Shown piece by piece: positions 4,560 through 30,140 of a stretch of DNA of 36,385 bases; position 1 is the first letter of the stretch; every line of letters starts with the position of its first letter. Below the pieces are notes generated by a model. That model was not told where the DNA came from and did not search any database. It worked only from the letters and a program-made list of their open reading frames with translations. The translations under genes were made by a program, and so were the position numbers. Source of the DNA: Alphaproteobacteria bacterium (GTDB taxonomy: Bacteria > Pseudomonadota > Alphaproteobacteria > DATDPM01); NCBI GenBank assembly GCA_041479345.1, contig JBGOXX010000003.1, positions 1 to 36,385 on the forward strand, written 5' to 3'.

Positions 4560-4780
4560 GCGCGATTTGAAGCCTGCCAATGCTGCAGCGCGCAAAAGCT
4601 TGAAATAGCCGCCGCAGCGCAAGACAAAGTTCAGGCGCGGCAATTCGCCTCAGGATTGATGGCGGCAAGGCGACTCGGAACGGTTGCGCGAGGTCCGGCG
4701 CATGGCTATTAATGCGGGCTTTGTTTTGGGGGCCTTAAGCGGTGGCGACAACCGCGTCGGCCGATGTAGGGCGGGGCAAG

Positions 4781-5950
4781 ATGGATATCCACGAATATCA
4801 AGCGAAGCAACTTCTCGCGAAGTACGGCGTGCCCGTGCCTTTGGGCGATATCGCCTTTAAGGCGCATGAGGCTGAAAACGTCGCCAAGTGGCTCGACGAA
4901 GAATTGATGGTGGTCAAAGCCCAGATCCACGCCGGCGGCCGCGGCAAGGCCGGGGGCGTGAAAGTCGTGCGGTCGGTGGACGAGGCGGTCGACGCCGCCG
5001 ACAAGATGTTCAATATGACGTTGGTCACCCATCAGACCGGACCGAAGGGCCGTCCCGTTCATCGCGTCTATATCGAAGCCGGCGTGTCCTATGATCGCGA
5101 ACTCTATTTCTCAATTCTGAACGACCGCGAAACCGCGGGCATCACCATCATCGCGTCCACCGAAGGCGGCATGGACATCGAAGAGGTGGCGGAGAAATCA
5201 CCCGACAAGATTCTTAAAATTTGCCTCGCCCCGGCCCAAGAGCTGCATCAACACCACGCCCGCAGCCTTTCTTATGATCTCGGCTTGAAGGGCAAGACGG
5301 CGCGAGCGGCGCAAAAAGCGATCCTCAATTGCTTCCGCGCGTTCTACGACCTCGATGCGTCTCTGCTCGAAATCAATCCGCTGGTGGTGACCAAGGCCGG
5401 CGATATCATGGCGCTCGATTGCAAAATGAGTTTTGACGACAACGCGTTGTTCCGTCACCGCGACATCACCGAGCTGCGCGACGACGATGAAATCGATCCG
5501 CTGGAACTCGAAGCGGCGCGTCACGATCTCAACTATGTAAAATTGCCGGGCTCCATCGGCCTGATGGTCAACGGCGCCGGCCTTTCGATGGCGACCATGG
5601 ACATCCTGAAACATTACGGGGGTGCTGCCGCCAATTTCATGGACGTGGCCGGTGCGGCGACGCCCGAACGGGTCGCTGCGGCGTTCAAGCTCGTCTATTC
5701 CGATCCCGACGTGAAGGGAATCTTGCTCAACATCTTCGGCGGCATGATGCGCTGCAATTCGATCGCCGAAGGTCTGGTGAATGCCGCCCGTGAAGTCGGG
5801 CTTAAGAAGCCGCTCGTCGTTCGCCTCGAAGGCACAAATGTCGAGTTGGGGCGTGAAATTCTCGAAAAATCCGGTCTGCCGATTCAGCCTTGCTCTTCGA
5901 TGGACGAAGCGGCGAAGAAGATCGTCGAAGCCGTGAAGAAGGTGGCGTGA
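4781..5950 (+). CDS. Divergent succinate--CoA ligase beta-like subunit (paralogue; substrate unknown)
   Basis: [28 protein letters not shown] and DDNALFRH are present. Substrate loops differ from the canonical copy ([25 protein letters not shown]). Confidence 0.88.
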
Positions 5951-6828
5951 TGTCGGTCCTCATCACGCGCGAATCGAAGATTATTTGCCAGGGCTTCACC
6001 GGAGCCCAGGGCACGTTCCATTCGGAACAGGCGATCAAATATGGCACGAACATGGTGGGCGGCGTTACGCCGGACAAAGGCGGCACCTCGCATTTGAATC
6101 TGCCTGTGTTCAACACCGTGGCGGAAGCGGTGGCGAAGACCGGCGCCAATGCTTCCGGCATTTATGTTCCGCCCCCTTTTGCGGCGGACGCGATTCTCGA
6201 AGCGGTCGATGCCGGCCTCGAACTTGTCGTCTGCATTACCGACGGCATCCCGGTCCGCGATATGCAGCGGGTCAAAGCCGAAATGAAGGGCAAGAAGACC
6301 AGGCTTGTCGGCCCGAATTGCCCGGGCGTCATTTCCCCGGGCATCGGGAAAATCGGAATCATGCCGGGCTACATTCATAAGCCGGGCAAGGTCGGCGTGG
6401 TGTCGCGCTCAGGCACGCTCAGTTACGAAACCGCGGTTCGCACCGGCATCGCGGGGCTCGGTCAATCGACCATTATCGGCATCGGCGGCGACCCGGTGAA
6501 CGGCACCAATTTCGTCGATGCGCTGACGCTTTTCCTCGACGATCCGGACACCGACGCCATTGTGATGATCGGCGAAATCGGCGGCACTGCCGAAGTTGAC
6601 GCCGCCGAATTCATCAAGTCGTGGAAGACGAAGAAAAAGCCGGTGGCGGCTTTCATCGCGGGCGCCGCGGCGCCGCCGGGCAGACGCATGGGTCACGCCG
6701 GCGCCATCGTTTCAGGAGGCAAGGAAACGGCGGACGCCAAAAAAGACGCACTGAAGAGCGCGGGCGTCGCCGTGGCGGAAACTATCGTCGATATCGGCCA
6801 GGCCATGGTCAAGGCCATGAAGGGCTAG
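5950..6828 (+). CDS. Divergent succinate--CoA ligase alpha-like subunit (paralogue)
   Basis: TGATG overlap with the upstream gene. [25 protein letters not shown] and phospho-His motif RMGHAGA. Confidence 0.88.
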
Positions 6829-6864: not shown

Positions 6865-7389
6865 ATGGCCGACAATGCGCTCATTTCCTATATCGGTCCC
6901 GATCGAGCGGGCCTGATCTCGAAGATCACCGGACGGCTTTTCGAGATGGGCGGTAGCTTGGGGGATTTGACCTTCGCCGGGCTCGGCGAGGCGGCGGAAC
7001 TCACCATGCTCTATGAAATGCCGAAAGACATGACGATCGATGGGCTGCGGCGTGAGATCGAAGTCTTGCCGGAAGTCCAGGGCGGCGAGTTGCGGGTGAA
7101 GGAAATCCAGGTCAAGACCACGCTGGGCGTTAGCAGCCGCATCACCCACCGAGTCATCCTTTCGGGGGGCGACCGGGCGGGCCTCGTGGCCAAGATCATC
7201 AAAATCATGGACCAGCACGGCGCCCGGGTCATCCGTATGAATGCGGAACGGCTGGCGGGCGCGATGGGCAGTCAATATATCGCCCGATTCGCCATTTCGG
7301 TTCGTGATGAACGTGCCCCCGCTTGTTTGGCCGCGATCGTCAGTTTGGCCGGCGAGCTCAAGCTCACTTTCAGATACGAAACCGCCTGA
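6865..7389 (+). CDS. Tandem ACT-domain protein (GcvR-like amino-acid-binding regulator)
   Basis: Two ACT signatures, ISYIGPDRAGLIS and ILSGGDRAGLVA. GGGAGGA SD upstream. Confidence 0.82.
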   Translation: MADNALISYIGPDRAGLISKITGRLFEMGGSLGDLTFAGLGEAAELTMLYEMPKDMTIDGLRREIEVLPEVQGGELRVKEIQVKTTLGVSSRITHRVILSGGDRAGLVAKIIKIMDQHGARVIRMNAERLAGAMGSQYIARFAISVRDERAPACLAAIVSLAGELKLTFRYETA

Positions 7390-7667: not shown

Positions 7668-8837
7668 ATGAATATCCACGAATATCAGGCTAAACAGCTG
7701 CTCGCCCGTTTCGGCGTGGCGGTGCCGCGCGGCGCCATTGCCTATACGCCGAAGGAAGCCGAGCAAGCCGCCAAGACTCTGGGCGGCAATGTCTGGGTCG
7801 TCAAAGCGCAAATTCACGCCGGCGGTCGCGGCAAGGCCGGGGGCATCAAGGTCGTCAAATCCCTCGCCGACGTGCGCGATGCCGCCAAGGCGTTGCTCGG
7901 CACCAAGCTCGTCACCAAGCAGACGGGGCCCGAGGGCAAAGAAGTCAAACGCGTCTATATCGAAGAAGGCTGCGGCATCGCCAACGAGCTCTATGCCAGC
8001 CTGTTGATCGATCGCGCGACCAGCCGCGTCACCATTCTGGCTTCGGATGCCGGCGGCATGGATATCGAAGAGGTCGCCGCCAAGGAACCGAAACGGCTCA
8101 TCAAGGTTGCGATTGATCCGGCCAGCGGCATTGAACCGTTCCACGCGCGCAAAGTGGTGTTTCATTTAGGCCTTTCGGGAGACGTCGCGGCCCGGGCGAT
8201 CGAGCTTTTGACCGCGCTCTATCTCGCTTTCATGACCTGCGATGCGAGCCTGATCGAGATCAATCCCCTCGTCGTCACCAAGGACGGAAGGGTGCTTGCG
8301 CTCGACGCCAAGATGAATTTCGACGACAACGCGCTATTCCGTCACAAGGAAATCGAAGAGCTTCGCGATGAAGACGAAGAAGATGCGACCGAAACCGAGG
8401 CGGCGCGCAACGGCCTCAATTACGTCAAGCTCGACGGCAATATCGGCTGCATGGTGAATGGCGCCGGTCTTGCCATGGCGACCATGGACACGATCAAGAT
8501 GGCGGGCGGCGACCCCGCGAATTTTCTCGATGTCGGCGGCGGGGCGACCCGCGAGCGCGTCGCGACGGCCTTCAAATTGATCGTGCGCGATCCGAAGGTC
8601 GAAGGAATTATGGTCAATATTTTCGGCGGTATCATGCGCTGCGACGTGATCGCGGAAGGGATCATCGCCGCCATGCGCGAAGTGAATCTCGTGGTGCCAT
8701 TGGTGGTTCGCCTGGAAGGCACCAATGTCGAGCTGGGAAAGGAAATCCTCGCCAAATCGGGTTTGAAAATCATCGCCGCGAATAGCTTGGAAGACGCCGC
8801 GCGCAAAATCGTCAAAGCCGTGCGGAGCGCGGCGTAA
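7668..8837 (+). CDS. sucC: Succinate--CoA ligase [ADP-forming] beta subunit
   Basis: Canonical [34 protein letters not shown] and [10 protein letters not shown] motifs. Confidence 0.96.
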
Positions 8838-9709
8838 TGGCGGTCCTCGTCGACAAAAAGACGAAAGTGATCTGTCAGGGCTTTACCGGGGCCCAAGGCA
8901 CCTTCCATTCCGAACAGGCGATTGCTTACGGCACGAAAATGGTCGGCGGCGTGACGCCGGGCAAAGGCGGCACGAAGCATCTCGATCTCCCGGTTTTCGA
9001 TACGGTCGCCGATGCGGTGGCGAAAACCGGCGCCGATGCCAGCGTCATATATGTGCCGCCGCCTTTTGCCGCCGACGCGATTTTGGAGGCGATCGACGCC
9101 GAGGTGAAACTCGTCGTCTGCATCACCGAAGGTATTCCCGTGCTCGACATGGTCCGTGTGAAACGCGCCTTGCAAGGATCGAAGACCCGCCTTATCGGCC
9201 CCAATTGTCCCGGCATCATCACGCCCGGCGCGTGTAAAATCGGAATCATGCCGGGGCACATCCATAAGCCCGGCCATGTCGGCATCGTCTCGCGCTCCGG
9301 AACGCTCACTTACGAGGCGGTCGCGTACACGACGGCGGCCGGGCTCGGTCAATCGACCTGCATTGGGATCGGCGGGGATCCGGTGAATGGCACCAATTTC
9401 ATCGATTGCCTCGAACTGTTTCTGGCCGATCCCGACACCCGCGGCATCGTGTTGATCGGCGAAATCGGCGGCACCGCCGAAGAGGAAGCCGCGGCCTTTC
9501 TGAAATCAGCGCGCTCCAAAAAGCCGGTGGTTGCCTTCATCGCCGGGCGTACCGCTCCGCCGGGCCGCCGCATGGGTCATGCGGGGGCCATCGTTTCCGG
9601 GGGCAAGGGAAGGGCCGAAGACAAGATCGAAGCCCTGAAAAGTGCCGGTGTTGCGGTTGCCAAGACCCCGGGCGAAACCGCCGCTTTGTTGGCCAAGAAG
9701 CTGAAATAA
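8837..9709 (+). CDS. sucD: Succinate--CoA ligase alpha subunit
   Basis: TAATG overlap with suc[19 protein letters not shown] and RMGHAGA motifs. Confidence 0.96.
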
Positions 9710-21975: not shown

Positions 21976-24332
<2,357 letters not shown>

Positions 24333-24822: not shown

Positions 24823-25644
24823 ATGAAACATTGGACTCTCGACGATATCGCCTGGGATAAGCTCGACCATTCGAAGGTCGATACCGATGTTCTCGCGGTC
24901 GTGAAGGCCGCGAGTTTGGTCGAGCACAATGGCGGCGATTACGCGACCTATCTTTGCAACGTGTTCGGCGACGATCCCGAATTCCAGCAAGTGGCCCGAG
25001 CCTGGGCGCTGGAAGAAGTTCAGCACGGTCAGGCGCTCGGCAAATGGGCCAGGCTTGCCGATCCCGAATTCGATTTCGACGCCGCCTTCAAACGGTTTAC
25101 CGACGGCTATCGTTTGCCTCTCGAGTCGACACTCTCCGTGCGCGGATCCCGCACCGGCGAGCTTATCGCCCGCTGCATCGTCGAAACCGGAACCAGCTCT
25201 TATTATACCGCCCTCAGCGAAGCGGTGGCGGAGCCGGTGCTGAAGGAAATCTGCCGGCGCATCGCAGCCGATGAACTCCGCCACTACAAGATGTTCTACA
25301 CCTACATGAAGCGTTATCTCGACCGCGAACCGCTCGGGTTTTTTGCCCGGGTGAGGATCGCTCTCGGGCGGGTGTTCGAAAGCGAAGACGACGAACTCCC
25401 TTACGCCTATTTCGCCGCGAACGGCAGCGGCTCTTATGAGCGCCGGCGCGTCGTCCGCGCTTATGTACGCCAAGCTTATGGATACTATCGTCCGCACCAC
25501 GTCGAACGGGCGATGGCCATGATCCTGAAAGCGGTCGGAGCCAATCCCAATGGGTGGCTGGGGCGCGTTCTTTCGGCGCTGTCCTACCGTTTCATGCAAT
25601 ACCGTGTCCGGCGATTGACGCTGGCCGAGACCACTGGCGTCTGA
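24823..25644 (+). CDS. Ferritin-like di-iron carboxylate protein (acyl-ACP desaturase-like fold)
   Basis: Di-iron ligand pattern: SLVE, EEVQH, CIVE, DELRH. Confidence 0.8.
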   Translation: MKHWTLDDIAWDKLDHSKVDTDVLAVVKAASLVEHNGGDYATYLCNVFGDDPEFQQVARAWALEEVQHGQALGKWARLADPEFDFDAAFKRFTDGYRLPLESTLSVRGSRTGELIARCIVETGTSSYYTALSEAVAEPVLKEICRRIAADELRHYKMFYTYMKRYLDREPLGFFARVRIALGRVFESEDDELPYAYFAANGSGSYERRRVVRAYVRQAYGYYRPHHVERAMAMILKAVGANPNGWLGRVLSALSYRFMQYRVRRLTLAETTGV

Positions 25645-25716
25645 GCGTCATTCCTGGAAATTCCGCCCCGGTCCGACCCGATCAATCCTGTCATTGCATC
25701 GTCACTCCCGCGGCCC

Positions 25717-25748
25717 CGTTTCGCGCTAAGGCTCGTTTCGCGCTAAGG
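25717..25748. repeat. 15-bp direct repeat x2 (17-bp period) upstream of the arcE-like gene
   Basis: cgtttcgcgctaagg at 25717-25731 and 25734-25748. Confidence 0.85.
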
Positions 25749-25788
25749 TGAGAGCACCGTTCTGATCGAACGAGTGGGGGATGGGCCC

Positions 25789-27144
25789 ATGACCGGAGCA
25801 AAAGGGCGCCGGCGCATTATCATTCTGGGGGCGGGCGGACGCGACTTTCACAATTTCAACGTCGTCTACCGCAAGGATCCGGGCGTTGAAGTTGTTGCGT
25901 TCACCGCGGCGCAAATCCCTGGCATCGCCGGCCGGATCTATCCGTCCGAGCTCGCCGGCCCGCTTTATCCGCAGGGCATTCCAATCCACGAGGAAAGCGC
26001 GCTCGAGGATCTTTGCCGGCGATTTTCTGTGAACGAAGCGGTGTTCGCCTATAGCGATGTGACGCACGCGACCGTAATGCATCTGGCATCCCGTGTGCTT
26101 GCCGCCGGCGCCGACTTCACCTTGCTTGGGCCCGACCGCACCATGCTTGAATCGGCAAAGCCCGTCATCGCCGTTACCGCGGTGCGCACCGGATGCGGAA
26201 AGTCGCAGGCCGCGCGCTATCTCTCCCGGCGGCTGAGCGGCCGGGGCTTGCACGTTGCCGTGGTGCGGCACCCGATGCCCTACGGCGATCTCGCGCGCGA
26301 ACGGCTGCAGCGCTTCGCAACGTTGGAAGACCTCGCCGTTGCGCGGTGCACGATCGAGGAGCGCGAGGAATACGAGCCGCACATCGCCGCTGGCAACATT
26401 GTCTTCGCCGGGGTCGATTACGCGCAGGTTCTCGCCGCCGCCGAGAGCGAGGCGGACGTCATCCTTTGGGACGGCGGCAACAATGATTTTCCGTTCTTCC
26501 GCCCCGCGCTCCACATCGTGCTCGTCGATGCGCTCCGCCCCGATCAGACGGCAAGTCATCATCCCGGCGAGAGCGTCTTGCGCATGGCGGATATCATCGT
26601 CGTCGCCAAGACTGACGTGGCCGGGCCTGTCGCTACGGAACAGGCCGCCGCCGCCGCGCGCGCCGTCAATGCGCGGGCGCCGATCCTGCGCGCGGCTTCT
26701 CCGATCCGCCTCGATGCGGCGGTTCCGCTTCAAGGCCGCCGTGTTCTCGTCATCGAAGATGGCCCCACCATCACCCACGGCGGCATGGCGTATGGGGCGG
26801 GGTTCATCGCGGCCTCGCGTGCCGGCGCGCAAATCGTCGACCCCCGGCCCTTCGCCGCGCCGCTGATTGCCGAGATCTATGCCCGATATCCCCATATCGG
26901 CGCAGTGCTGCCGGCCGTGGGTTACAGCGAAGCTCAGATAACGGCGCTCGCCCAAACCATTGCGGCAAGCCCGGTCGATGTCGTGGTCGCCGCAACGCCG
27001 ATCGATCTCGCACGACTGATATCCATTGAGAAACCGGTGGTGCGCGCGGTGTATGAGTTCGCCGAGGCGGGCGAGCCGAAGCTTGCCGATCTTCTCGATG
27101 CGTTTCTCGCCCGCGCCGTGCGCCCGCACGAAATCGCCCGATGA
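25789..27144 (+). CDS. arcE: COG2403/CpgS-like P-loop ligase; probable arginine synthetase
   Basis: GAGGRDFHNFN, P-loop AVRTGCGKS, RHPMPYG, TIEEREEYE, WDGGNND and EDGPTITHGG motifs. Directly upstream of carbamate kinase. Alternative GTG start at 25774. Confidence 0.72.
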   Translation: MTGAKGRRRIIILGAGGRDFHNFNVVYRKDPGVEVVAFTAAQIPGIAGRIYPSELAGPLYPQGIPIHEESALEDLCRRFSVNEAVFAYSDVTHATVMHLASRVLAAGADFTLLGPDRTMLESAKPVIAVTAVRTGCGKSQAARYLSRRLSGRGLHVAVVRHPMPYGDLARERLQRFATLEDLAVARCTIEEREEYEPHIAAGNIVFAGVDYAQVLAAAESEADVILWDGGNNDFPFFRPALHIVLVDALRPDQTASHHPGESVLRMADIIVVAKTDVAGPVATEQAAAAARAVNARAPILRAASPIRLDAAVPLQGRRVLVIEDGPTITHGGMAYGAGFIAASRAGAQIVDPRPFAAPLIAEIYARYPHIGAVLPAVGYSEAQITALAQTIAASPVDVVVAATPIDLARLISIEKPVVRAVYEFAEAGEPKLADLLDAFLARAVRPHEIAR

Positions 27145-27164
27145 ACCGCCGCCCGATGAATCGC
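27135..27164. repeat. 15-bp duplication spanning the arcE stop codon
   Basis: cgcccgatgaaccgc / cgcccgatgaatcgc. Confidence 0.8.
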
Positions 27165-27184
27165 CACCTGGGGAGAGATCACTC

Positions 27185-28108
27185 ATGCGCGTTGTGATCG
27201 CGCTCGGCGGAAATGCGCTATTGCGGCGCGGTCAGCCGCTCGAAGCCGATATTCAACAGCGCAATGTCGCTGTTGCGGCGCAGGCCATTGCCGAAGTCGC
27301 GCGCGAAAACGATGTTGTCGTGACTCACGGCAATGGGCCGCAGATCGGCCTCTTGGCGCTCCAAGCCCAGGCCTACAGCAAGGTCCGGCCGTATTCCCTC
27401 GACGTGCTGGGCGCTCAAAGCGAAGGAATGATTGGCTACTTCATCGAGCGGGAGCTCGCGAACCGTTTGCCGCGGCGCGACATCGCAACATTGCTTACCA
27501 CGGTCGAAGTCGATGCCAATGACCCCGCCTTTGCTGCCCCGACCAAGCCGATCGGCCCGGTCTATGCCGAGAGCGAAGCGCGTCAGTTGCGCGATTTTTC
27601 CGGATTTACAATGGCGCGCGATGGTGATGGCTTCCGGCGGGTGGTGCCGTCGCCCGAACCGCGCCGCATCCGCGAACTCGCGGCGATCCGATTGCTGGTC
27701 GAAGCCGGGGTCATCGTGATCTGCGCCGGCGGTGGCGGCATCCCGGTCGTCACAACCCCGGGCGGGGGTTTGCGCGGCGTGGAAGCGGTAATCGACAAAG
27801 ATCTTTCGGCGTCTCTGCTCGCTGTGGAGATAGGCGCCGAGGCCCTGCTGCTTTTGACCGATATCGAATCGGTCGAAACCGGATGGCGCACGCCGGCCGG
27901 CCGCAAGATCCATGAGGCTTCGCCGGAAGCCCTGCGCGGCCAATCCTTCGAAGTGGGAACCATGGCGCCGAAGGTCGAAGCGGCGGTCCGCTTTGTGGAG
28001 CGGACTGGTGGCTTTGCCGGCATCGGCGCGCTAGCGGCCGCGGCCGAAATTCTTCGCGGCGAGGCGGGGACCATCATCCGCGCCGGCACTACGATGACAT
28101 GGTACTGA
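27185..28108 (+). CDS. arcC: Carbamate kinase
   Basis: VIALGGNAL, THGNGPQIG, PTKPIGP, RRVVPSP.P, GGGGIPV, EAVIDKD and GTMAPKV motifs. GGGGAG SD. Confidence 0.95.
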   Translation: MRVVIALGGNALLRRGQPLEADIQQRNVAVAAQAIAEVARENDVVVTHGNGPQIGLLALQAQAYSKVRPYSLDVLGAQSEGMIGYFIERELANRLPRRDIATLLTTVEVDANDPAFAAPTKPIGPVYAESEARQLRDFSGFTMARDGDGFRRVVPSPEPRRIRELAAIRLLVEAGVIVICAGGGGIPVVTTPGGGLRGVEAVIDKDLSASLLAVEIGAEALLLLTDIESVETGWRTPAGRKIHEASPEALRGQSFEVGTMAPKVEAAVRFVERTGGFAGIGALAAAAEILRGEAGTIIRAGTTMTWY

Positions 28109-28116
28109 CGGCTGCT

Positions 28117-28614
28117 TCAGTGCCGCTTGGCGGCGTCGATCAGCGGCCCGAACTCGGCGACCAAATCCCCATAGAGCTTGCGCTTGAAGGGGACGATGAG
28201 GCGGGGAAGCGCCGCAACCTTCGCCCATTTCCAATCGAGAAATTCCGGATGCTCGGTTTCGATATCGATGTCGGAATCTTTGCCCGTGAAGCGCAGCAAA
28301 AACCATTTCTGGGTTTGGCCGCGAAAGCGCCCGCCCCAGATTTTCGGAATCAAATCGGCGGGCAGATCGTAAGTCAGCCAGTTCTTGCTTTCGGCCACGA
28401 TCTTGGCTTTGTCGGTGCCGATCTCTTCTTGCAGTTCGCGCAGGGCCGCTTCCCGGGGGCTTTCGCCTTCGTCGATCCCGCCCTGGGGCATTTGCCAGGC
28501 TTGGCTCGGCGTGTCGATGCGGCGTGCAACGAATACCAGGTCCGCAGCATTGACGAGCATGATCCCGACACCCTTGCGATAGGGACGTTCGGTAATCGTC
28601 GAGTTTCGCGTCAC
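28117..28614 (-). CDS. rppH: RNA pyrophosphohydrolase (Nudix)
   Basis: YRKGVG, WQMPQGG, Nudix box GGIDEGESPREAALRELQEEIG, GQTQKWF and IVPFKRKLY. Confidence 0.93.
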   Translation of the reverse strand: MTRNSTITERPYRKGVGIMLVNAADLVFVARRIDTPSQAWQMPQGGIDEGESPREAALRELQEEIGTDKAKIVAESKNWLTYDLPADLIPKIWGGRFRGQTQKWFLLRFTGKDSDIDIETEHPEFLDWKWAKVAALPRLIVPFKRKLYGDLVAEFGPLIDAAKRH

Positions 28615-30140
28615 TTTGCGATCTGCTTATTGACCAGGGCGGAAACCGGTGCGATGGCGAAGCCGCGTTGCTCCGCTTTCGGCACCCAAGCGGCGACGCG
28701 TTCCATGGTCACCGGATAGGCCGTTCCCATCGCCACCGCAAAACCGGTTTTCTTGGCAAGTTTTTCAACCTCATCCAATTCGCCGTCGATCGCATCGCGC
28801 GACGCCTCGGCATCGATGAAACGGCTGTTGAAGGTGGTCGGCATGCCCATATCGCTCGCCATTTTGGCGGCGATGCTTTGGTCGGAGGACCGGCTGTCGA
28901 GGAAAAGAAGCCCGCGCGCCTTGATCGCATCGAGCACCGGTTTCAGATCGGGGCCGGAGGTGGTGAAGCGCGAACCCATGTGATTGGTGACACCGACATA
29001 GCCGGTGGTGCGGCTCAGCAGCCATTGCATCTTGAACAAATTCTGACGGGGATCGATCGAGGTCAGCAGCGTGTAGGGGCCTGGATCCTGTTCGGGATAA
29101 TCGATCGGCTCCATCGGCAGGTCCATCAAGACTTCGTGGCCGGCGGCGCGCGCAAGATTGGTCCATTGATCGAGGCCCTTCGCGTAAGGCGAGAAAGCGA
29201 GGCTGACGCTTCCCGGAAGCTGCTGAATCGCGGTTTCGGTTGCAGCACCGGAAAGCCCGAGATCGGTAATGACGACGGCAATTCGCGGCCGCTTGTCGGT
29301 CTGATCGAAGGGCCGCGCATAAACCTGCCACGGTTCGCGCCCATCGGGCCCGATGATGGGGAGCGGTCCCTCGCGCCCGTGTTCGACCAGATTGGGATCG
29401 GGAGCCGGGGAAAGCTTGGGTTCGGGGAGGGCAGCGACCTGAGTTTTCTCCGGAGTCGGCTTTTCCGGCGCCGCCTCTTTCGCTTTTGCCGGTTCGGGTT
29501 CCGCTTTGGCCATTTCTTTTGGCTTCTCGGGCGGTTTTTCCGCCGCTTTTTCGGCGGTGTGTTTTTCAGGCTTCGCTTCGGGTGGTTTCACCTCAGCGGG
29601 TTTGGATTCCGCCGCCTTGGTTTCGGCCGGCTTTGCTTCGGGCGCCTTCGATTCAAGCGCCTTCGCTTCGGATTCGGGGGGCTTGGCTTCTTTGGCCGCG
29701 GTTTCGCCAGATGGCGTTTCGACTTTCGGCGCTTCGACCTTGGCTGGTTCGGGCTTTGGAGGTTCCGGTACGGATGCTTCGGCCTTGGGCGGTTCCTGCG
29801 GGGTTTCCGGCTTTGCCGCTTCCGCGGGCGGCGTTTCGGATTGCGGCCCCGCTGGTGGAGTAGCCGCTGGCGGCGGTCCGGGCACTGGGGCTTGGGCTTC
29901 CGGTGGTGTTGCCGCTGCCGGTGCCGGCGGCATTTGCTCGGGGGCCTGCGCGGTTTGCTTGGGCGCTGCCGGCGGTATCGGCGCCACGATACCTGGCACG
30001 GCGGCGGTGGCGCCGGGACCGCCCGGCTCTCCATAGAAGTAGAGCCAGGTTACGGTCCCGGATACCAATGCGAATAGGATCAGCCAGGCGACAAGAAGAA
30101 GACCGCCCGAACTCCCGCCCTCTTTATCCCTCGTCCTCAC
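28611..30140 (-). CDS. Divergent polysaccharide deacetylase (YibQ-like) with an N-terminal TM helix and a long P/E/A/K linker
   Basis: IAVVITDLG, GHEVLMDLPMEP, NHMGSRFT and FLDSRS motifs. Lies downstream of ctpA. Confidence 0.88.
   Translation of the reverse strand: MRTRDKEGGSSGGLLLVAWLILFALVSGTVTWLYFYGEPGGPGATAAVPGIVAPIPPAAPKQTAQAPEQMPPAPAAATPPEAQAPVPGPPPAATPPAGPQSETPPAEAAKPETPQEPPKAEASVPEPPKPEPAKVEAPKVETPSGETAAKEAKPPESEAKALESKAPEAKPAETKAAESKPAEVKPPEAKPEKHTAEKAAEKPPEKPKEMAKAEPEPAKAKEAAPEKPTPEKTQVAALPEPKLSPAPDPNLVEHGREGPLPIIGPDGREPWQVYARPFDQTDKRPRIAVVITDLGLSGAATETAIQQLPGSVSLAFSPYAKGLDQWTNLARAAGHEVLMDLPMEPIDYPEQDPGPYTLLTSIDPRQNLFKMQWLLSRTTGYVGVTNHMGSRFTTSGPDLKPVLDAIKARGLLFLDSRSSDQSIAAKMASDMGMPTTFNSRFIDAEASRDAIDGELDEVEKLAKKTGFAVAMGTAYPVTMERVAAWVPKAEQRGFAIAPVSALVNKQIAK

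Follow-up and report, generated by a model that had tools for sequence, protein, structure and literature searches.

The gene pair arcE-arcC, located at positions 25789 to 28108 of a 36,385-bp stretch of alphaproteobacterial DNA (contig JBGOXX010000003.1 of assembly GCA_041479345.1; this whole stretch is referred to as the window), probably constitutes an acquired, ATP-yielding module for the catabolism of arginine that borrows the ornithine carbamoyltransferase (OTC) ArgF of its host. The first gene (25789..27144, + strand) encodes a P-loop protein of 451 aa with the Walker A motif TGCGKS at residues 134-139, a predicted member of the family of arginine synthetase (ATP-forming arginine deiminase), and the second gene (27185..28108, + strand) encodes a carbamate kinase of 307 aa. 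The pair is most likely a new example of the known arginine synthetase pathway. We infer on which substrates the module acts, in which direction the flux runs, that ArgF is used in reverse, and that there is a link to low oxygen. According to the proposed reaction sequence, ArcE would convert L-arginine, ADP and inorganic phosphate (Pi) into L-citrulline, NH3 and ATP. Citrulline would then be split by the resident biosynthetic-type ArgF into ornithine and carbamoyl phosphate, from which the co-acquired carbamate kinase would form CO2, NH3 and a further ATP from ADP. Substrate-level phosphorylation could in this way provide up to two ATP per arginine, an advantage that a bacterium living in sediment would have at times of limited respiration.

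Arginine synthetase has been described for Thermococcus kodakarensis, in which TK2200 (ArcE) catalyzes the reaction Arg + ADP + Pi <-> Cit + NH3 + ATP (Michimori, Yokooji, Atomi 2024, PMC11032458). As far as the available text of this study and of a later one (Michimori et al. 2026, PMC13260591) goes, the pathway of this archaeon comprises ArcE (TK2200), ArcB (TK0871) and ArcC (TK2158) and yields up to two ATP per arginine, while ArcA and ArcE are complementary among the holders of ArcC. In the same portions of the first study, ArcE homologues are described as widespread in archaea and bacteria, some of them near arcB and/or arcC, and as present throughout Thermococcales and also in Hyperthermus and Pyrodictium. 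The bacterial holders named there are Beta- and Gammaproteobacteria, not Alphaproteobacteria, which the figures of the supporting information may include along with arcE-arcC pairs. ArcE is reported to be only distantly similar to cyclic 2,3-diphosphoglycerate synthetase (cDPGS), and a model of TK2200 was superimposed on the kinase LpxK (4EHY) to infer nucleotide binding (PMC11032458).

An original prediction, made from the letters of the window, had described the product of the first gene as a CpgS/COG2403-like P-loop protein. This description agrees with a marginal match to the Pfam family cobW (21.4 bits vs a cut-off of 20.7), with the lack of any match among the NCBIfam families, and with a sole sequence match in PDB, which is weak and partial (E 0.0079) and concerns the cDPGS 9sxb. 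Homologues are numerous. At least 8000 candidates were scored, all of them with E <= 0.001, the closest ones outside the genus being ~80% identical, and an exhaustive search among cluster representatives yielded 3569 proteins at E <= 0.001 and 565 at E <= 1e-30. In databases, these homologues carry the names 'predicted GTPase', 'GTPase' and 'cyclic 2,3-diphosphoglycerate synthase' (also '... synthase family' and 'GTPase family'), just as the prediction had expected. With homologues called 'GTPase' or 'cDPG synthase', the family presents a concrete case of database mislabelling.

The assignment to the ArcE family is based on phylogeny, conserved positions and predicted structure. For the phylogeny, 70 rows comprising 66 ArcE-type proteins and four cDPGS as outgroup were analysed with IQ-TREE (LG+G4, SH-aLRT); the ArcE-type rows include Hyperthermus, Pyrodictium and 11 rows from the archaeal class of genome G440. 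The SH-aLRT value for the split between ArcE-type proteins and cDPGS is 100%, and the branch separating them is very long, measuring 2.17 to either side of the root. The window ArcE is found deep within the ArcE-type rows, in a 15-row clade (99%) that is mostly proteobacterial. Its sister is the protein of G003, a genome of the same genus, followed by the metagenome proteins P0008, P0013 and P0016 and then by proteins from Binatia, Thiohalocapsa, Rhodocyclaceae and Formivibrio. The protein therefore does not cluster with true CpgS, and no cDPGS-type gene was found in its genome, in which the best tblastn match had an E of 0.018. In pairwise comparisons, the window ArcE is 53.6-56.9% identical to the 11 ArcE-type proteins of the class of G440 (446-450 columns), 47.4% to the protein of Hyperthermus butylicus and 48.6% to that of Pyrodictium occultum, vs 22.2-23.7% to the four true cDPGS. 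Among 65 ArcE-type rows, 40 columns reach a conservation of 97% or more; the window ArcE has the consensus residue in all 40, and at 32 of them all four cDPGS have a different residue. The family motifs GAxGRD, TGxGKS, RHPMPYGD, EEREEYEP, WDGGNND and EDGPTxTHGG are all present. An AlphaFold model built with 45 sequences (mean pLDDT 93.9, pTM 0.91) matched the cDPGS of Methanothermus fervidus best in a Foldseek search against PDB (8oru, E 8e-18; 8ork, E 6e-17), the next match being LpxK of Aquifex aeolicus (4ehy, E 2.6e-9, TM 0.66 on the target).

The class of G440, which also holds a Methanofastidiosia metagenome-assembled genome (MAG), is presumably the GTDB class Thermococci, containing Thermococcales. 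In a search centred on the genome of locus L102, a single-copy homologue was found in 59 of 61 genomes of this class; the 30 best of these homologues are 54-58% identical to the window ArcE over its full length, and almost all of them come from single-contig genomes of 1.7-2.2 Mb. Four genomes of the class (G453, G451, G475 and G491) hold an ArcE-type gene and a separate cDPGS. The second genes (L141-L144), which these genomes have in addition to the ArcE loci L133, L134, L136 and L138, match the window ArcE very weakly with E values of 5e-6 to 7e-4, and L141 is a true cDPGS (E 2.1e-181 to PDB 9sxb). Because both families coexist in four archaeal genomes, they can be regarded as distinct paralogues, and these genomes serve as a clean natural control for a functional difference between the two. 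From its position in the tree and its conserved residues, the first gene of the pair is assigned to the ArcE family and not to cDPGS, as the prediction had proposed. The cluster representative P0130, 48% identical to the window ArcE, is a protein from Thermoproteota that has those of Hyperthermus butylicus and Pyrodictium occultum among its relatives. An identification of P0130 or P0129 as Thermococcales proteins was rejected, as they are of Thermoproteota and DPANN/Bathyarchaeota types. No Thermococcus record was present among the 80 genome loci listed in an archaeal-led alignment scan.

The product of the second gene exceeds the cut-off of the carbamate kinase family NF009008 (447.8 vs 361 bits) and lies just under that of TIGR00746 (352.6 vs 358.25 bits). 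In PDB it matches 8crv with E 4.6e-100 over residues 1-298 and 1e19 with E 1e-68. The co-oriented carbamate kinase gene that the prediction had placed 40 bp downstream of arcE is thus verified. The spacer (27145..27184, + strand) contains a ribosome-binding site, GGGGAGAG at 27170-27177, which sits 7 nt 5' of the ATG of arcC, whose product begins with MRVVIALGGNALL. No terminator-like site was found between the two genes.

The genome of the bacterium (G000), a MAG with 230 contigs and a total size of 2.32 Mb, has a completeness of 94% and a contamination of 0.36%. It encodes ArcE in single copy, and arcC is likewise its sole carbamate kinase gene. Among the 30 other open reading frames (ORFs) of the window, scanned against NCBIfam and in six cases also against Pfam, there was no arginine deiminase, OTC or amino-acid antiporter, which agrees with the prediction. 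The one OTC of the genome (374.5 bits, over the cut-off) is encoded on another contig (C9) within argD-argF-hslO. The genome search also found argG, argH and carB but no TIGR01078 match that would indicate arcA, and an arginase-family protein was not found. As there is one argF together with argG, argH and carB and no arcA, the unlinked ArgF would have to be borrowed by the module, in line with what had been predicted. Since carB, argG and argH already cover the synthesis of carbamoyl phosphate and arginine, catabolism is the most plausible use of an additional carbamate kinase.

An arcE-arcC pair without arcB is not unusual. Neighbourhoods of 160 ArcE loci were scored with the window ArcC and the ArgF of the genome (phmmer, at least 150 bits), the resulting counts being lower bounds because flank lengths differ. 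For 80 loci on genome contigs, arcC was detected in 17 and an OTC gene in 13, with both in 8 and arcC only in 9; the arcC-only loci include MAGs of Actinomycetota, Methanothrix, WOR-3 and Brocadia. For 80 loci on metagenome contigs, the respective numbers were 20, 14, 8 and 12, and for the 22 closest metagenome relatives (ArcE score >= 570) they were 9, 2, 1 and 8. Genes of the OTC type are accordingly a recurrent third partner across phyla. Among 40 relatives, three of the four other ArcE loci have arcC adjacent (L013, L015 and L016). In 30 loci of the class of G440 with 1.5-kb flanks, neither arcC nor an OTC gene is adjacent, which matches the dispersed genes of T. kodakarensis. Across 27 loci, which are not independent, the more an ArcE resembles the window ArcE, the more the neighbouring ArcC tends to resemble the window ArcC (Spearman coefficient 0.73, a value that is descriptive). 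The metagenome representative P0125 (766 aa) is a fusion of carbamate kinase and ArcE in a single predicted protein, with residues 3-311 being 45% identical to the window ArcC and residues 327-758 being 51% identical to the window ArcE. This fusion gives a hint of a partnership between ArcE and ArcC. A 733-aa ORF in an Anaeromyxobacteraceae MAG (L094:2792-4990) shows carbamate kinase similarity of 202 bits and ends at the start of arcE. It is far longer than a normal carbamate kinase and may be a fusion or an artefact of ORF calling.

The pair is most likely a horizontally acquired operon whose two genes were gained together. It lies in a block at ~25614..28135 that is specific to G000 and G003 and is situated between a rubrerythrin/ferritin-like gene and rppH. 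In G001, a member of the same genus, these two genes are separated by 35 bp, and in G004 and G005, members of the same family, by 317 bp and 144 bp. The ~2.5 kb that are extra in G000 and G003 compared with these three genomes bear out the proposed insertion between the atp/ferritin block and rppH. The sole match of G002 stops 11 bases before the end of its locus and is uninformative for the block. ArcE occurs in 4 of 40 relatives, namely in one of the three other genus members (G003, 95% identical), in neither of two other genera of the family, and in 3 of the 35 remaining genomes, which belong to the class. Of 400 other genomes sampled evenly across the phylum, one has it (E <= 1e-30). In the atpD-atpC part of the stretch searched, G003 resembles G000 far more (93% DNA identity over the 6-kb stretch) than G001 (80%) and G002 (82%) do, so that a single gain in the ancestor of G000 and G003 is the simplest history. 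The G+C content is 0.656 in arcE and 0.645 in arcC, compared with 0.607 in the genome. Integrase, tRNA or transposase genes flanking the block were not found in the window.

The block is no assembly artefact. Among contigs from public sediment runs, one from run X1, which may be the source of the window DNA itself, spans the whole stretch, one from X8 covers the left junction, and contigs from X2, X3 and X8 cover the right junction. A chromosomal joint free of the block was not seen in four runs, a search limited to contigs, from which rare variants drop out. In the scan of metagenome contigs, the best ArcE match was 69% identical among the matches listed, and the ~80% identical relatives seen in the protein search were not among them.

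Both genes are under purifying selection and maintained. Neither reading frame is disrupted in G000 or G003, and the ratio of nonsynonymous to synonymous substitution rates (dN/dS) between these genomes is 0.18 for arcE and 0.22 for arcC, with 0.01 for atpD and 0.05 for the rubrerythrin-like gene. The dS value of arcE itself (0.12; 25789-27141 compared with L017) is about half those of arcC (0.23) and the flanking genes (0.26-0.30), which could be due to constraint on codons or G+C, or to arcE having been exchanged more recently.

Several points weigh against a catabolic role. The ArcE reaction is near equilibrium (K = 10.1 at 80 deg C in the available text of PMC11032458), so its direction depends on metabolite levels, and ArgF is encoded in a biosynthetic context (argD-argF-hslO) and would have to run in reverse. 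Neither an ornithine cyclodeaminase nor an ArcD arginine/ornithine antiporter was found in the genome, where the best TIGR03810 match reached 44.1 bits vs a cut-off of 591. The genes found therefore account for neither arginine uptake nor the fate of ornithine, and all gene absences are to be read as 'not found' in a 94%-complete MAG. A scan of positions 25400-28800 for sigma-70-like promoters gave 0 sites. A terminator scan gave no site after arcC, and the 3 sites that it found are no more than in shuffled sequences. A box of the FNR type with at most 2 mismatches was absent from the leader 25645-25788, the nearest ones being intragenic at 23295 and 27854. The link to the characterised TK2200 runs via genomes of the presumed class and via Hyperthermus and Pyrodictium, which serve as proxies for TK2200. 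Finally, no published assay of an ArcE of the bacterial branch was found in the literature, and the biochemistry comes from one hyperthermophilic archaeal enzyme.

The same enzymes could work in the anabolic direction or in both directions, an unlikely but serious alternative. Carbamate kinase would then form carbamoyl phosphate from NH3, CO2 and one ATP, ArgF would form citrulline, and ArcE would fix free ammonia onto it at the cost of one ATP. This would provide a cheap, aspartate-independent route to arginine in ammonium-rich sediment, or a reversible buffer for energy and nitrogen. In the available text on the archaeal enzyme, TK2200p forms arginine from citrulline, ATP and NH3 in vitro and supports growth on citrulline and ammonium in vivo, in keeping with a readily reversible reaction (PMC11032458). 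Moreover, an arcE-arcC pair without arcB suits either direction equally, ArgF being needed both ways. An anabolic or two-way role gains some plausibility because ArcE acts near equilibrium and because no antiporter or ornithine-consuming enzyme was found. This role is at odds with the presence of carB, argG and argH. It is also at odds with the report, in the accessible part of the later study, that the carbamoyl phosphate provided by carbamate kinase was insufficient for T. kodakarensis to grow, whereas that from a carbamoyl phosphate synthetase (CPS) sufficed (PMC13260591). In addition, the authors take ArcE as catabolic where ArgG and ArgH occur, as in Pyrococcus furiosus, according to the passages available from both studies (PMC11032458, PMC13260591). 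The resident CPS, ArgG and ArgH, the carbamate kinase in the module and the shortfall of carbamate kinase in PMC13260591 together favour the catabolic direction. The catabolic interpretation of the original prediction is supported for a putative activity and direction of flux, and the outcomes of its computational checks all agree with it.

There is a rather slim chance that the pair is operated reversibly, with ATP being drawn from arginine under energy limitation and arginine being rebuilt when ammonium and energy are in excess. If so, arginine would be rebuilt from citrulline and ammonia at half the classical ATP cost and would serve as a rechargeable store of energy and nitrogen.

It is doubtful that the bacterial branch uses another guanidino or ureido compound while carbamate kinase takes carbamoyl phosphate from a different transferase. 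Such a substrate would be compatible with the lack of published assays of bacterial members, with an identity to archaeal proteins of only 47-57%, and with the failure of the TIGR03810 antiporter search to identify an arginine transporter. However, all 40 family-conserved positions are kept, OTC-type genes recur as third partner in 13 of 80 and 14 of 80 loci, and the genome has a single carbamoyltransferase of the OTC type. TK2200p itself rejects D-arginine, agmatine, guanidine and Arg-containing dipeptides in the available part of the study (PMC11032458).

It is very improbable that the pair arrived recently as a mere passenger and is without a function today. The patchy distribution (1 of 400 other genomes sampled from the phylum, 2 of the 4 in the genus, 4 of the 40 relatives), the lack of a recognisable promoter and the lack of RNA runs among those listed could be understood in this way. 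Against this stand frames that are intact in two species at dS 0.12-0.23, dN/dS values of 0.18-0.22 and the retention of all conserved residues. That ArcE is a true cDPGS making a thermoprotectant solute is hardly conceivable, and although several sources label homologues 'cyclic 2,3-diphosphoglycerate synthase' and cDPGS is the nearest solved structure, it is refuted as far as sequence can show by 22-24% identity to four true cDPGS, the 32 of 40 conserved columns that differ in all four, the fully supported split in the tree, the separate presence of both families in four archaeal genomes, and the adjoining gene for carbamate kinase.

For the preferred catabolic module, the closest known system is the arginine synthetase pathway of T. 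kodakarensis. Both share an ArcE of the same family, as judged by the tree and the conserved positions, with a predicted P-loop fold like that of LpxK and cDPGS, a carbamate kinase as partner, an OTC encoded elsewhere, and no arcA. Unlike the archaeon, the bacterial host is mesophilic and respires, a full tricarboxylic acid cycle and an F1Fo ATP synthase being encoded in the window. T. kodakarensis is without CPS, ArgG and ArgH, whereas the bacterium has all three. Moreover, arcE and arcC are dispersed in T. kodakarensis but adjacent and acquired together in the bacterium, where their activity is putative. In the classical arginine deiminase (ADI) pathway (arcA-arcB-arcC with arcD; Pseudomonas aeruginosa), arginine is likewise converted into ornithine, NH3, CO2 and ATP via carbamate kinase. 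In contrast to that pathway, neither ArcA nor a dedicated catabolic OTC was found in the bacterium and no ArcD match exceeds the cut-off, and while the ADI pathway yields one ATP per arginine, the first step would here yield ATP as well, giving two in total. The cDPGS enzymes (Methanothermus fervidus 8ORK/8ORU; 9SXB) are distant homologues with a similar length and an ATP-dependent P-loop mechanism, but they form a separate clade and differ in substrate and genomic context. The tetraacyldisaccharide 4'-kinase LpxK (Aquifex aeolicus 4EHY) shares a P-loop kinase core, but the match is confined to this core, and LpxK is a membrane-associated lipid kinase that is functionally unrelated.

As a new member, the pair would extend the holders of the arginine synthetase pathway, characterised before in one hyperthermophilic archaeon, to a mesophilic and probably aerobic-capable proteobacterial lineage. 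It would define a minimal transferable unit of arcE and arcC, inserted between housekeeping genes and relying on the ArgF of the host. A mesophilic ArcE would be easy to assay and could settle the direction of the pathway in organisms that also hold ArgG and ArgH.

The stretch or part of it is contained in 20 runs, which belong to 15 studies and mostly bear the label sediment metagenome, and 13 of these runs contain at least half of its words. There were no RNA runs among the 21 runs listed. Occurrence in sediment would fit a use of the module under oxygen limitation. In all four sediment runs, the contig depth increases several-fold at 26274-26541, where short contigs from other organisms resemble the window solely in the best conserved part of ArcE (~EEREEYEP...GVDY) and diverge beyond it. 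Since many foreign short contigs match this conserved stretch, ArcE-type genes seem to be common in sediment communities.

The ORF of arcE was listed from a GTG (25774-27144, + strand), and an in-frame ATG at 25789 follows a purine-rich stretch. The intergenic leader 5' of arcE (25645..25788, + strand) contains this stretch as a ribosome-binding site before the ATG. At a distance of ~40-70 bp from arcE it also contains two identical 15-bp copies of CGTTTCGCGCTAAGG in direct orientation (25717-25731 and 25734-25748). The repeat represents a 17-bp tandem duplication and is unique to this site genome-wide. In the contig from run X8, which is 17 bases shorter at 25717, one copy is missing, and the repeat is degenerate in G003. 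For these reasons it is read as a strain-level tandem duplication, and a role as a conserved regulator site was rejected.

The genes upstream of the pair in the window are sdhB, nadA, nadC, mdh, two sucCD-like pairs, sucA, sucB, lpdA, xerC and priA, followed by atpA, atpG, atpD, atpC and the gene for a 273-aa rubrerythrin/ferritin-like protein (24823-25644). The product of this last gene shows weak di-iron matches of the rubrerythrin and acyl-ACP-desaturase types (Pfam E 1.4e-5 and 8.4e-8) and falls into no NCBIfam family. The gene, which is the ferritin gene of the original prediction, occupies this place between atpC and rppH in each of the five relatives examined. Downstream of the pair, the opposite strand carries rppH (28117-28614, - strand), which is convergent with arcC with stop codons 8 bp apart, and then genes for a polysaccharide deacetylase, ctpA, an EnvC-like protein, gpmI, rlmH, rsfS and nadD. 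The order of genes is compatible with an alphaproteobacterium. The two succinyl-CoA-synthetase-like beta/alpha pairs are arranged in tandem (4742-5950 with 5890-6828, and 7668-8837 with 8837-9709) and are separated by a gene with two ACT domains (6865-7389). Both beta subunits score just below the malate-CoA ligase cut-off (517.5 and 582.5 vs 604 bits), and since they are this near to it, one of the two pairs may be a malate thiokinase.

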